Assembly: GCF_004010195.1 (NCBI RefSeq) | Contig: NC_057752.1 | Coordinates: 160,956-206,899, forward strand | Source: Chiloscyllium plagiosum | Taxonomy: Eukaryota | DNA length: 45,944 nucleotides | Direction of reading: 5' to 3' | Shown here: positions 7,674 through 40,789 of the stretch, piece by piece | Layout of the letters: each line of letters begins with the position of its first letter | Position numbering within the stretch: the stretch's first letter is position 1 | Notes under the pieces: model-generated | The model's input: the letters and a program-made list of their open reading frames with translations, nothing else | Told to the model about the DNA's origin: nothing | Database searches by the model: none | Translations under genes and position numbers: made by a program

Positions 7674-7747
7674 ATTTGCATTGAATCACTCTTCCTCTCT
7701 TCGGATTTTAAGTGGGAAATCCCGCTCTAACACCAAACCCTATAAAG
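7674..7747 (+). promoter_or_regulatory. Proximal promoter of the IL23A-like gene
   Basis: Octamer ATTTGCAT 7674-7681; AP-1-like TGAATCA 7682-7688; Ets/PU.1-like CTTCCTC 7691-7697; NF-kB GGGAAATCCC 7714-7723; TATAAAG 7741-7747, 90 nt upstream of the ATG at 7831. Confidence 0.8.
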
Positions 7748-7830: not shown

Positions 7831-7983
7831 ATGAAAAAATGTGGCGAGTTGCTGACGCTCATCTTGCTGCTCAATGTGGCTGGGATCACGAGCTCAGTCC
7901 CCGATCAACTGTCCAGTTGGACATCCTGTCGAATTCTTTCCAGGAACCTCACTTCCAAGGCTTTTAACTACATGCATGGATGG
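7831..7983 (+). CDS. IL23A: Interleukin-23 subunit alpha (p19)-like, coding exon 1 (signal peptide plus helix A)
   Basis: Kozak-like gagccATG. Translates to MKKCGELLTLILLLNVAGITSSVPDQLSSWTSCRILSRNLTSKAFNYMHGW: a hydrophobic signal peptide and a WxxCxxLSxxL motif like human p19 WTQCQQLSQKL. Donor GTAAGT at 7984, phase 0. Confidence 0.85.
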
Positions 7984-10612: not shown

Positions 10613-10869
10613 CACCCTCTCCTCCCTGACCTATCACCTTCATCTCCTCCCCCACTCACCCATTGTACTCTATGCTACTTTCTCCCCACCCCCACCCTCC
10701 TCTAGCTTATCTCTCCACGCTTCAGGCTCTCTGCCTTTATTCCTGATGAAGGGCTTTTGCCCGAAACGTCGATTTTGCTGAAGCTCCTCGATGCTGCCTG
10801 AACTGCTGTGCTCTTCCAGCACCATTGATCCAGAATCTGGTTTCCAGCATCTGCAGTCATTGTTTTTAC
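10613..10869 (+). mobile_element. Penelope-like 3' end fragment, intron 1
   Basis: Closely matches the reverse complement of about 18633-18850. TSD ctttagcaaca 10602-10612 / ctttcgcaaca 10870-10880. Confidence 0.85.
10741..10772 (+). ncRNA. Minimal hammerhead ribozyme motif (PLE type)
   Basis: UC-CUGAUGA-A-GGGC-UUUU-GCCC-GAAACGUC-GA: intact core, 4-bp stem II, palindromic ACGU stem III, 2-bp stem I. Confidence 0.65.
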
Positions 10870-11294
10870 CTTTCGCAACAGTTGACTGTCACAGACTAGC
10901 ATGGCACTTAAACCTTTGCTGTGCCATAGTTGATCATGTGATACCTGTTCCTGGCTTTATACATCCAGCGTCCAATTTCAATCGGCTGGAGGATGCGCCT
11001 GGCGAACATAGGGAAGTTCCCGGTTCAAACTTTGGCATGTGCTGAATTCTGCTGGGGTTGTGTTCTGCTGGGAATGCTGCGTGTAGTCTAGTAAGAAAAA
11101 ATAGGGGAACGCGGCACCTGTATCAATAGGATCAGGATTGCAGCGGTGGACAGATTTTTTGGGAATGAGTAACGAGGGCATCAAGACACCGCAGTATGGC
11201 ATAAAATGGCTGTCAAACGAAAATTGGTGAAGTTAAAATATGATAATGTGTTAAAGCTATTTATATAATGATCCGACCATGATTTTCTGTACAG

Positions 11295-11396
11295 GAGCAT
11301 TGCCCGAGAAATTTTAAATTGAATGACAGTGAGGACATCCCACGTATCGAAGTCAGTGATAACTGTGACCCCATCACACTCAGGACAGTTCCAGAG
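11295..11396 (+). CDS. IL23A: IL-23 p19-like coding exon 2
   Basis: Acceptor ttttctgtacAG, donor GTAAGC, 102 nt, phase 0/0. EHCPRNFKLNDSEDIPRIEVSDNCDPITLRTVPE aligns with human DVPHIQCGDGCDPQGLR. Confidence 0.9.
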
Positions 11397-11647
11397 GTAA
11401 GCAGTCGCTGACAATGTATGGCAACTCAGTGGTTCTGTTGCTGGATGAATAATGCATCAGAAAGTGTCATCAAAACCCGCTTTGGCAGTTTGAGAACTTT
11501 TAAAAAGCTGGTATCAGTAAAAGTGACTGTTGGATTGTCCTTAAACTCAATATGCTTTATGAAAGGAAACTTCTCTTAATTTACAGACCCACCGCACCAT
11601 CCCCCCCCACCCTATAATAAATGACACTTCCCATGAGTGACATTTTT

Positions 11648-11770
11648 CGACTGTGGGAAGAAACCCACACAGACACGGGGAGTACGTGCAAACTTCACGC
11701 GGACAATCGCCGAAGATCCCTGGCGCTGTGAGGCAGTAGTCCCAATCACTAAAGCACCGGGCCACACCGG
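11648..11770 (-). mobile_element. Degenerate HE1/V-SINE fragment, intron 2
   Basis: gactgtgggaagaaacccacacagacacggggag...tgcaaac...ctggcgctgtgaggcag matches the SINE at 20465-20772. Confidence 0.75.
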
Positions 11771-12205: not shown

Positions 12206-12358
12206 GCGTGCCTTAAGAAAATTAAAGAAGGCCTGTCATATTACCGCAATCAGTTCAGCCAACTTGGAAACGTGGAAGAGTCAATGCACAACAGCGACAT
12301 GCGGAAATTTGCGTATAATCTTTCTAAAATCATCTTGGATCTCCTCAAGTCAATCAAG
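12206..12358 (+). CDS. IL23A: IL-23 p19-like coding exon 3 (helices B and C)
   Basis: Acceptor ctctgactctttcAG, donor GTAATG, 153 nt, phase 0/0. ACLKKIKEGLSYYRNQFSQLGNVEESMHNSDMRKFAYNLSKIILDLLKSIK; compare human FCLQRIHQGLIFY. Confidence 0.9.
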
Positions 12359-13602: not shown

Positions 13603-13818
13603 AACTCGGACAGCAGCGCAGATGACAGGACCATAGACAGAGTTGCTGCGGATAATAGGCCTGTCAAGATACACAAGATCAGAGATTGGGAGCTGAACTG
13701 TACATTGTTTAGAACACTTGAGAGATTTCAGTCCTTCTCATCTCTGGTGGCTCGTGTCTTTGGACATCCTTCAGGAAACCCTTCGGAACATCAGAACACT
13801 GGGGATTGTGGGGTATAG
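13603..13818 (+). CDS. IL23A: IL-23 p19-like coding exon 4 (helix D, stop codon)
   Basis: Acceptor ttatttttttAG. NSDSSADDRTIDRVAADNRPVKIHKIRDWELNCTLFRTLERFQSFSSLVARVFGHPSGNPSEHQNTGDCGV*; compare human [28 protein letters not shown]. Confidence 0.9.
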   Translation, partial: NSDSSADDRTIDRVAADNRPVKIHKIRDWELNCTLFRTLERFQSFSSLVARVFGHPSGNPSEHQNTGDCGV

Positions 13819-18911: not shown

Positions 18912-19830
18912 NNNNNNNNNNNNNNNNNNNNNNNNNNNNNNNNNNNNNNNNNNNNNNNNNNNNNNNNNNNNNNNNNNNNNNNNNNNNNNNNNNNNNNNNN
19001 NNNNNNNNNNNNNNNNNNNNNNNNNNNNNNNNNNNNNNNNNNNNNNNNNNNNNNNNNNNNNNNNNNNNNNNNNNNNNNNNNNNNNNNNNNNNNNNNNNNN
19101 NNNNNNNNNNNNNNNNNNNNNNNNNNNNNNNNNNNNNNNNNNNNNNNNNNNNNNNNNNNNNNNNNNNNNNNNNNNNNNNNNNNNNNNNNNNNNNNNNNNN
19201 NNNNNNNNNNNNNNNNNNNNNNNNNNNNNNNNNNNNNNNNNNNNNNNNNNNNNNNNNNNNNNNNNNNNNNNNNNNNNNNNNNNNNNNNNNNNNNNNNNNN
19301 NNNNNNNNNNNNNNNNNNNNNNNNNNNNNNNNNNNNNNNNNNNNNNNNNNNNNNNNNNNNNNNNNNNNNNNNNNNNNNNNNNNNNNNNNNNNNNNNNNNN
19401 NNNNNNNNNNNNNNNNNNNNNNNNNNNNNNNNNNNNNNNNNNNNNNNNNNNNNNNNNNNNNNNNNNNNNNNNNNNNNNNNNNNNNNNNNNNNNNNNNNNN
19501 NNNNNNNNNNNNNNNNNNNNNNNNNNNNNNNNNNNNNNNNNNNNNNNNNNNNNNNNNNNNNNNNNNNNNNNNNNNNNNNNNNNNNNNNNNNNNNNNNNNN
19601 NNNNNNNNNNNNNNNNNNNNNNNNNNNNNNNNNNNNNNNNNNNNNNNNNNNNNNNNNNNNNNNNNNNNNNNNNNNNNNNNNNNNNNNNNNNNNNNNNNNN
19701 NNNNNNNNNNNNNNNNNNNNNNNNNNNNNNNNNNNNNNNNNNNNNNNNNNNNNNNNNNNNNNNNNNNNNNNNNNNNNNNNNNNNNNNNNNNNNNNNNNNN
19801 NNNNNNNNNNNNNNNNNNNNNNNNNNNNNN
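18912..19830. other. Assembly gap (919 N)
   Basis: Run of N. Confidence 1.
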
Positions 19831-26774: not shown

Positions 26775-27520
26775 AAATTGAATTGAATTGAATTAGCTTT
26801 ATTGTCACGCACTCAAACCACTTCAGTGCCATCTTAGGTATAAGGAGAAAATGAGGACTGCAGATGCTGGAAATCAGAGTCGAGAGTGTGGTGCTGGAAA
26901 GATACAGCAGGTCAGGCAGCATCTGAGGAGCAGTAGAATCTACATTTCGGGCATAAGCCCTTCATCAGGAAGCCCTTCTTGATGAAGGGCTTGTGCCCGA
27001 AGCATCAATTATCCTGCTCCTCGGATGCTGCCTGACCTGCTGTGTCTTTCCAGCACCACACTCATCTTAGGTATAATTCTTAGTTACAGAATAGAGAAAT
27101 GAAGAAAATGTTACATTACAATGATACACAGTTTAACCATAGGTCAGAAAACTAAGAAGCAAAGTTAAAAAGAAAAATATCATAGTCTCTCTCCAAAGAC
27201 TCTCTACAGCAGACCAGCGCAAGGGACCTCCATGTGGTCTGACTGCTGGCTGCCACCATGCTCTGCACTGAGCTGTTGCCCCTGCTCCTGCACCGGGCTG
27301 CTATTGCCATGGTCTGCACTGGGCAGCTGGTTGCCGGCATCCTGCTGTTCACTGGCATTCTTGCTCTGGCCGCTGGCATCTCCTTCAACTCCACTTCAGA
27401 GACTGGGGCCTGGTTCTGAGGCCGAGAGAAGGGAGGAGAGAGGGAGAAAGAAAAGAAAAAGAACAGGTGGAGCACAGCAGCTCCGGCTGGAGAGTCCTAC
27501 TCTGCCTACTCTGCCAGATT
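26775..27520 (-). mobile_element. Non-autonomous element with a Rex1/Babar-like tail, inserted into an older SINE/LINE tail
   Basis: Minus strand ends gtgacaataaagctaattcaattcaattcaatt, like the Rex tail at about 35390-35426. The host sequence ccaggattt...aacccaatgacagtgaagg is split around it. Confidence 0.55.
26844..27062. mobile_element. Palindromic Penelope-derived mini-element
   Basis: Inverted arms at about 26884-26972 / 26975-27063; exact 14-bp TSD catcttaggtataa 26830-26843 / 27063-27076. Confidence 0.9.
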
Positions 27521-27543
27521 TTAACCCAATGACAGTGAAGGTG

Positions 27544-27860
27544 CATAGAGTCATGGAGATGTACAGCACGGAAACAGACCCTTCGTTCAACTCGTCCATG
27601 GCAGCCAGATATCCTAACCTAATTTAGTCCCATTTGCCAGCACTTGGTCTACATCCCTCTAAACCCTTCCTATTCATATACCGATCCAGATCCTTTTAAA
27701 TGTTGTCAGCCTCCACCTCTTCCTCTGGCAGCTTATTCCACACACGCACCACCCTCTGTGTGAAAATGTTGCCCCTTAAGTCTCTTTTATATCTTCCCCC
27801 TCTCACCCTAGACCTATGCCCTCTAGTTCTGGATTCCCCTGCCCCAGGGAAAATGTTATA
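27544..27860 (-). mobile_element. CR1 3' fragment
   Basis: catagagtcatggagatgtacagcacggaaacagaccc is the reverse complement of the CR1 tail. Confidence 0.9.
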
Positions 27861-38920: not shown

Positions 38921-40789
38921 CTAGCCTGTTGTGTTTATTTCAGCTCCTTGAAAGAGTCATAGAGTCATACAGCATGGAAACAGACCCTTTAAAAAACATT
39001 TTAAAGTTTAACTATTTGGGCATTTTCTGCTCTGTAATTCCCCTTACACCACAATTGGCTGGATGGGGAAAAGCCATCCTTGCCCCACTACTCAAATCTC
39101 CAACTAAAATTACAGATCTGCTGTAATGACATAATCATACCCTATCTGCAGTTTTAAAAGAGGATCCCATTTCCTTCCCAAGTCAAAGTGTAAGTCTGTG
39201 GATGCTGGAGATTGGAAAAAGAGAAGTACTTGTGAAACTCTGAGTCTAGCATCTGTGGAGAGAGAAACAGAGGGCAGAATCTTATGGGGGTTGACAACAA
39301 GCCTGGTGAGATCCTCTCACCCCAGCTTTTACGCTTTTCACAAGCAGCTTGGTGAGATCCTTGCTATGCCAATTGATAAAGATTAATGCATGGGATGTGC
39401 GAGAGTGAATGAGGGAAGATGTGCAAGCAATAGTGAGAGTGGTAGAGCATGTGCCTTGGTGACATGGGTACAGGAGCAGAGATAGTGAGAACGAGGTATC
39501 GGAGAGAAGATGGTGGCAGGAGTTAGATTTAGATTTCTTGTCACGTGTACAAAAATACAGTGAAAAGTGTTTTCTGCATGTTAAACGCAAAGTCTCGCCG
39601 CTGAATATAATGCAAGATTTTACTGTAATAGAATTCACCTTTTTCTCTTCTTCCTGGTCCTCTACCACTGCTCTTGTAGATGCTGCTTGACATCAGCTGG
39701 GGTCTCTGTCATGGGCTCCAGGGTCTCGGTTATGAGCCCACCTCTGCTGTCGCCGTCGCTCCTGAAACTGCCACATCTGAGCTGGAGCCATGGGCCTGGG
39801 GGGGGTTTCATACCTCTTGCTCCCCCACCGATGCTCCTCAAAACACTGCCGCTGGTCATCAGGGTCCTGTCTTCAGGCTCCACCACCACTGATGCTACAG
39901 CTTATGCAACTGCTGTTCCTGTGCTGGAGCTGACCATGGGCATGGGGCTGTGCAGGGCGTGGGCTAGAGCTTGAGTCCAAGAGTCACTCAACCTGCAGAA
40001 AGACAATGAAACTGTTACAGTACTGAGCGACAATGAAGCTATAAAATTATCATAATAGTGCAATTGCTTCATTAATATCCTTTTGGGAAGGAAATAAGCT
40101 GTCCTTATCTGGTCATTTATTGCGCTTCTGTTTGGGAAACTTTGGCAATTTCAGATTGTTGTAATGTATAAAAGGTAGCAGTGTGCACATTTCAAACTGT
40201 TTTGAAACAACTTGACATTAAGGGTGCTAAATACATATTATTCTTTTTTTATGTTGTTACATGGTGTTCCTTATTTTCTTATGATCCACAGAACCTCTCT
40301 GGAGTGAGTGCCTTGATCTCTGAAGGCATCAGATAGACCTTCCAATGTGAGCAAGACAAAGAAAAATTAGGATGAGCAAATTGTGTCAACTGCATCCAGT
40401 TCTGGGGGCCTGTTACCACTGTCCCATGTGCAAAATGAAATCTATATTCTTGTGAATGAATATTTACAGGGTTTATTGAATATAAGGCACAACAAGAAAG
40501 GGCATTCTGCTGCAACCTTACAGACTGAGGCTCTAGTGCCATGTGGTCTGACATCCCTATTACATAGCTTCATTCACACTTGCTCAGTACCTATTCAGAA
40601 TAAAGATGTAATTAACTCTTTACTCCATGTTTTCCTCAAACCTTCAACCCCATTGACCATAAACACTATTTACACTATTTTTCACATCACTCTCATCCAA
40701 AGTCTGATTTACAAGGAAATTCTGTGGAATGGATTCACCAATTTCCCAGAATCCGCACATAGTACCTTTGGCAAACAGGTTATCTGAGA

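Follow-up and report, generated by a model that had tools for sequence, protein, structure and literature searches.

The p19 subunit of shark interleukin-23 has valine at the site of the p40-linking cysteine, a probable tetrapod addition

Introduction

Human interleukin-23 (IL-23) consists of p19, encoded by IL23A, and p40, encoded by IL12B, joined by a disulfide (PDB 5MXA, 6WDQ). On the p19 side the bond is made by a cysteine in the AB loop, C73 (C54 of the mature chain), which lies four residues before the first cysteine of the intrachain pair C77-C89. Mutating the linking cysteine (C54S, mature numbering) has an intermediate effect on p40-induced secretion, with a reduced level, and loss of the intrachain pair has a drastic one (PMC6739322). 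According to a source available in excerpt, human p19 without mature C14, C22 and C54 is partly secreted alone and has been studied by NMR bound to p40. Site 1 of mouse p19, which binds p40, has its hot spots at I176, A178 and R179, and W156 of human p19 is a hot spot for IL-23R (PMC7600943, excerpt). In human p19 the AB loop, the BC loop and the part of helix D at its N terminus form one pocket, and crystal structures available by 2014 left the AB segment disordered (PMC4220489, excerpt).

IL-12 without its interchain bond reassembles and signals, and the bond has been reported to be dispensable for formation and activity (PMC10599630, excerpt). Among fishes, carp p19 is co-induced with p40c, which has no linking cysteine, and in the excerpted part of that study the authors' modelling gave no evidence of preferential pairing (PMC2946394). 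Grass carp p40c and p35 formed no heterodimer on non-reducing gels (PMC8481787, excerpt). IL-23 p19 and IL-23R have earlier been published for cartilaginous fishes (PMC6238376, excerpt). Here we describe IL23A in a stretch of 45,944 nucleotides from the shark Chiloscyllium plagiosum (hereafter the window) and compare its p19 with these systems.

Results

The IL23A gene and its product

The window holds an intact IL23A gene of four coding exons with GT-AG phase-0 introns (Table 1), an arrangement that we take to match mammalian IL23A. Its 207-residue product shows 0 differences from XP_043538065.1 ('interleukin-23 subunit alpha-like', C. plagiosum RefSeq); the gene itself is therefore not new, as a RefSeq annotation exists. 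That the product is a p19, as the sequence-only reading had it, is upheld by three kinds of search. The Pfam IL23 profile PF16649 matches at E 1.9e-12 (48 bits; cut-off 27). In phmmer, the 96%-identical protein P0001 returned 11 matches below E 1e-7, all p19, the next standing at E 0.19. Our first, weaker structure model (pLDDT 59) gave no Foldseek match at E<=0.001, and VIA Z-scores computed on it did not separate the family members. The second model, built from a 49-sequence alignment, has a mean pLDDT of 77 and shows a four-helix bundle (helices 29-48, 84-106, 115-138 and 164-188); all nine of its Foldseek matches at E<=0.001 are p19, and IL-6 first appears at 0.016. Similarity of the shark protein to p35 is weak in sequence (E 4.2). 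Since the sequence, Pfam and fold matches are all to p19, an identity as IL-6, G-CSF, p35 or p28 is ruled out.

Table 1. Positions of IL23A features, counted from the first letter of the window
Feature	Position	Strand	Remarks
Putative NF-kB-type consensus site GGGAAATCCC	7714..7723	+	Upstream of exon 1; sole pattern match in window
TATAAA box	7741..7746	+	Upstream of exon 1
IL23A coding exon 1	7831..7983	+	Residues 1-51; helix A, putative signal peptide
C33	7927-7929	+	In exon 1; corresponds to human C33 (mature C14)
IL23A exon 2	11295..11396	+	AB loop, residues 52-85; run X4 shows it spliced to exon 3
C54 codon	11301..11303	+	AB-loop start; invariant across sharks and rays; predicted to pair with C169
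V71 codon GTC	11352..11354	+	Site of tetrapod p40-linking Cys (human C73, mature C54)
C75 codon	11364..11366	+	First Cys of intrachain pair; 49/49 aligned p19 sequences
IL23A exon 3	12206..12358	+	Helices B and C, residues 86-136; C87 at 12209-12211
IL23A exon 4, coding part	13603..13818	+	CD loop, helix D, tail; residues 137-207 and stop
W165 to C169	13687..13701	+	Human W156 (IL-23R hot spot) and L160; ungapped alignment; human roles from PMC7600943 (excerpt)
L184-V185-A186-R187	13744..13755	+	p40-binding site 1 (mouse I176, A178, R179); mouse roles from PMC7600943 (excerpt)
C205 codon	13807..13809	+	Tail Cys, 18 residues after R187; candidate partner C33 or p40

Conserved synteny of IL23A orthologues would place the gene in a region with STAT2, PAN2 and ORMDL2. 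We identified no neighbouring genes of IL23A within the 45,944 nucleotides, and tblastn found no second copy within the window. Gene models of the bichir type (P0047) and of a catfish (P0064) fuse p19 with an ORMDL2-like sequence, which suggests that the two genes are neighbours in ray-finned fishes. Elsewhere in the window, long open frames at 27150-27630 and 39585-39974 are not obviously repeat-derived and have no significant Pfam match, and a 919-base run of N (18912-19830), an assembly gap or mask, lies outside IL23A. Upstream of the gene, the putative NF-kB-type decamer sits 17 bases 5' of the TATAAA box (7714-7746).

In run X4 coverage continues without a break from the 3' end of intron 1 into exon 2 (10844-11397, depth 1312-2484), and exon 1 has a depth of 0. 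This is only a hint at transcripts without the signal-peptide exon, as contigs cannot show where transcripts start and some records were filtered. A stop at 11280 is in frame with exon 2, and no ATG precedes the exon. The RefSeq X2 isoform (P0015) uses an alternative first exon at 10993-11034, with a GC donor, and has no obvious signal peptide.

Valine at the linking-cysteine site

Positions 11340-11372, in exon 2, translate as PRIEVSDNCDP. The segment aligns without gaps to human PHIQCGDGCDP, so that V71 faces the first cysteine of the human motif, and the tetrapod linking cysteine is missing from the shark chain. C75 and C87 match the human intrachain pair; as residues, both are invariant in 49 of 49 aligned p19 sequences, in keeping with the earlier claim that this pair is retained. 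The numbering of C54, V71, C75 and C87 in the sequence-only reading was correct, and its assignment of V71 to a GTC codon is borne out by the translation, by the identity with RefSeq and by read contigs.

Two of the four public runs that we examined have a listed contig over the V71 codon, and neither differs from GTC. Record 7 of run X1 (10846-11675), possibly the very sample from which the window was assembled, carries one other letter, its sole listed difference, at 11444. Record 19 of run X4 (11185-11397) has no differing letter, and the same run contains the spliced joint of exons 2 and 3. For run X18 the nearest listed piece ends at 11309, and run X23 gave no reads at the locus. The sequence-only reading had allowed that reads or close relatives might show cysteine at this codon; the reads show GTC, and the corresponding residue is V or I in all 15 elasmobranch species. 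V71 is thus neither a chance change nor a private allele, and the X1 and X4 contigs together with the 15 species rule out a sequencing or assembly error. An alternative exon encoding the cysteine is likewise ruled out, as a six-frame motif scan of the window gave this one site only.

In other respects shark p19 resembles its human counterpart closely: the four-helix fold, W30 and C33 in helix A, the intrachain pair, the site-1 arginine and the site-3 tryptophan are all present. It differs in having no cysteine at the C73 position and no second helix-A cysteine (human C41), and in adding C54, C169, C205, a longer tail and four N-glycosylation sequons.

Distribution among vertebrates and direction of change

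We compared the residue four places before the first intrachain cysteine, taking one sequence per named species. The alignment of chondrichthyan and bony-fish p19 that the sequence-only reading had proposed shows a residue other than cysteine in all 32 fishes of this census: valine or isoleucine in the 10 sharks and 5 rays, serine in both bichirs, alanine in both sturgeons, glutamate in bowfin, alanine, serine or threonine in the 11 teleosts, and arginine in the lungfish Protopterus. Cysteine occupies the site in all 11 named tetrapods (3 caecilians, axolotl, 2 frogs, skink, 2 ducks and 2 rodents) and in 17 of 17 further representatives, which the tree without exception groups with named tetrapods. 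The census excludes ten records that are duplicate isoforms or come from a species already counted; six of them agree with it and four (P0057, P0060, P0064, P0065) are untallied. The 32 and 28 sequences are not independent, and the 60 together amount to one evolutionary event, so we set aside a Fisher test on the split.

Parsimony on the accepted species tree requires one gain in tetrapods against three losses, which favours a Cys-free linking site as the likely ancestral state of jawed vertebrates. Judged from these sequences, it is highly probable that the linking cysteine was gained once, on the tetrapod stem, and that it let p19 use a free p40 cysteine that p35 already used. The sequence-only reading had spoken of a cysteine replaced by valine, and it is this direction that we would reverse, since a tetrapod gain is more likely; its suggestion that the shark condition might be ancestral fares better than its other option, a lineage-specific one, on the contrast of 32/32 fishes with 28/28 tetrapod-type sequences.

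The alternative of an ancestral linking cysteine, with independent losses in cartilaginous fishes, ray-finned fishes and lungfish, we think quite unlikely. Teleost p35 and p40a/b do retain linking cysteines, which indicates that a covalent link is old in the family, and in the p19 gene tree sharks stand beside amniotes at moderate support (94/89). Against this stand the three losses required in place of one gain, the 0 reversals among 28 tetrapod-type sequences and the different position of the cysteine in p35. As the deep nodes of the gene tree differ from the species tree, the polarity relies on the accepted species tree. The linking cysteine of p35, kept in teleosts and mammals, is C96 and appears to come after the first cysteine of the conserved disulfide, whereas that of p19 comes four residues before it; the mapping of C96 uses a signal peptide that we take to be 22 residues long. 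The different placement suggests separate origins, both aimed at p40 C199. A word-based search, which is insensitive and so not evidence of absence, found no p19 of coelacanth, chimaera or other lungfishes; Protopterus is thus the single sequence that fixes the node of the gain.

The remaining cysteines

Mature shark p19 has six cysteines: C33, C54, C75, C87, C169 and C205. All 15 elasmobranch species have both C54 and C169. The human counterpart of C169 is L160, which belongs to the IL-23R site; counting along the alignment puts C54 opposite human M54-L56, where the AB loop begins. From these positions we infer a likely C54-C169 disulfide, which would fasten the start of that loop to helix D at the receptor site. 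In p35 a disulfide, C64-C196, also joins the AB loop to helix D, and presumably it resembles the predicted C54-C169 bond, with the same 21-residue spacing to the next cysteine. None of the ray-finned fish and lungfish sequences, which in 17 of 17 cases also have no loop cysteine, contains the C54/C169 pair; many ray-finned fishes have instead one cysteine in the BC loop and one early in helix D, a pair that would do the job of C54-C169 at the same end of the bundle. The predicted intrachain pairs of shark p19 would then be the conserved C75-C87, C54-C169 and, least certain of the three, C33-C205, joining helix A to the tail.

The sequence-only reading had suggested that C54 or another cysteine might take over the bond to p40. 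For C54 this is hardly credible. The residue is invariant in sharks and rays and located in the AB loop, but 17 residues separate it from V71, which lies downstream, and its place is at the receptor end of the bundle rather than at the p40 end. Its use for p40 would also leave the equally invariant C169, its likely partner, unpaired. The option of another cysteine has a better candidate in C205, which that reading did not mention.

A cysteine 18-22 residues after the p40-binding arginine occurs in all 10 sharks, all 5 non-teleost ray-finned fishes, 10 of the 11 teleosts (8 of 9 anchored by the arginine plus both Labrus sequences, which end with a cysteine) and 3 of 3 caecilians. It is found at this distance in 0 of 5 rays (Narcine has a cysteine at +27) and in none of the catfish, the lungfish and the other 8 named tetrapods. 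Four of the five rays, the catfish and the lungfish have neither loop nor tail cysteine, yet keep the arginine; a form without either link thus exists in any case.

It is possible, if doubtful, that shark IL-23 is covalent through a bond between C205 and p40, an older link that tetrapods replaced by the loop cysteine. The distribution of the tail cysteine is nearly complementary to that of the loop cysteine, Takifugu flavidus keeps the tail cysteine without a helix-A cysteine, and several neoteleosts and bowfin have odd cysteine counts. The tail also starts at the p40 interface (human T167 is in the interface, according to an excerpted source), and the model is confident for residues 191-200 (mean pLDDT 84; residues 201-207, which include C205, mean pLDDT 51). 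Other observations fit less well. The tail cysteine is missing in four of five rays, catfish and lungfish despite the kept arginine. In sharks, Polypterus, A. ruthenus and Aldrovandia the mature chain has an even number of cysteines, with the helix-A and tail cysteines both present, and in the catfish both are absent, as an intrachain pair predicts. Caecilians have tail and loop cysteines together. On balance we lean towards C205 not bonding p40.

The tail also carries a motif, G[ND]P..H (window 13756-13809, residues 188-205), which is confidently modelled, occurs from sharks to frogs and salamanders and is absent from the aligned amniotes; most ray-finned fish and lungfish sequences share it, together with the tail cysteine, with the shark. 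Six of eight p19 sequences of the squamate clade (P0027, P0029, P0032, P0035, P0042 and P0055) have a new cysteine five residues after the p40-binding arginine, possibly for a separate bond between helix A and the tail.

Partner choice and assembly

L184, A186 and R187 of the shark chain match the mouse site-1 hot spots, with R187 invariant in 49 of 49 p19 sequences, and W165, the counterpart of human W156, is kept in at least 90% of the 49 aligned sequences. p40 is quite probably still the partner, with R187 predicted to dock in the p40 pocket and W165 to engage IL-23R; the Arg-pocket interface with p40 is one that shark p19 shares with IL-12 p35 (IL12A). Because these p40-binding residues and W165 are kept, we regard a non-covalent p19:p40 dimer, held by the conserved arginine interface, as the most likely form of shark IL-23, with a probability of roughly 55%. 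The non-covalent assembly put forward in the sequence-only reading therefore holds up as the leading possibility. The human C54S and triple-cysteine mutants, the IL-12 results and the co-induction of carp p19 with p40c, all described above, also speak for it. Two reports count against it: human C54S p19 (mature numbering) is degraded faster, in a source available in excerpt, and in one cited report IL-12 was less stable and less well secreted once the bond was lost.

The sequence-only reading had pointed to IL-27 (p28/EBI3) as a parallel. The likeness would lie in assembly, probably, without an interchain disulfide; the alpha chain is another one, as is the beta chain if p40 is the shark partner, and the shark protein matches p19 and not p28. 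We consider it very unlikely that shark p19 pairs non-covalently with EBI3 rather than p40, in the manner of IL-39. IL-27 and IL-35, both EBI3 dimers, are not disulfide-linked according to the cited literature, and EBI3 has been reported in Callorhinchus by an automated survey in which the oldest p40 is that of bichir (PMC12162339). The absence of older p40 from this survey weighs little, because the same survey missed all fish p19. Moreover, the p40 site-1 residues are kept in the shark, and a published title reports no evidence for IL-39 in human immune cells. Our own broad-alignment search returned 7 proteins, with p40 not among them.

A further idea of the sequence-only reading, that shark p19 folds and is secreted alone like IL-6, would have it meet p40 or a receptor chain outside the cell. 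Human p19 is held back through its free cysteines, and once all three are removed a part of the protein is secreted alone (excerpted source); if all six shark cysteines are paired, no free thiol would be left, and the four N-glycosylation sequons also fit secretion. Nevertheless, we judge this unlikely. An unstable helix A acts as a second, Cys-independent checkpoint that still retains much of the human triple mutant (excerpted source), rays and lungfish keep an unpaired helix-A cysteine, and site 1 shows the residue conservation expected of a chain that binds p40 tightly.

Discussion

Given the human mutants and IL-27, a non-covalent shark IL-23 comes as no great surprise. Our search of full-text literature, in which few subscription papers are covered, found neither the missing linking cysteine of shark p19 nor a tetrapod gain of the bond stated anywhere, and the excerpts of PMC4929537, PMC4690019, PMC9731863, PMC12281479 and PMC6795676 hold nothing on fish p19 cysteines. 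In the excerpt of a paper on the duck (PMC6744436), zebrafish is listed with the intrachain pair and is not among the species with a p40-binding cysteine, so that the absence in teleosts was probably already visible in print; the vertebrate-wide polarity suggested by our comparison we did not find there. In a survey from 2025 that covers 405 species, p19 is assigned to the avian and mammalian epoch (PMC12162339), which the p19 sequences of sharks, rays, sturgeons, bichirs, teleosts and lungfish contradict.

The separate observations can be joined in a single scheme, which as a whole we think rather unlikely. Every cysteine of shark p19 would be paired within the chain, with the C54-C169 staple pre-ordering the IL-23R site; p19 would leave the cell alone and join p40 reversibly outside, like IL-6 and soluble IL-6R. 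Later, in tetrapods, the loop cysteine would have appeared and the tail cysteine disappeared, making an obligate, ER-gated covalent dimer in which human C14 is the orphaned half of an old disulfide.

If the tetrapod gain is true, a disulfide treated as defining IL-23 would be a tetrapod addition, gained apart from that of p35. It would explain how teleost p40c, without the linking cysteine, can be a candidate IL-23 partner, and it would give an origin for the odd free C14 of human p19, which ER chaperones use to hold the unassembled chain. Human IL-12 and IL-23 can partly dispense with the bond, so the physiological effect may be a small one. Shark p19 would nonetheless model a p19 whose receptor-binding loop is tied down, and would be a natural test of the passage from an IL-6-like cytokine to an obligate heterodimer.
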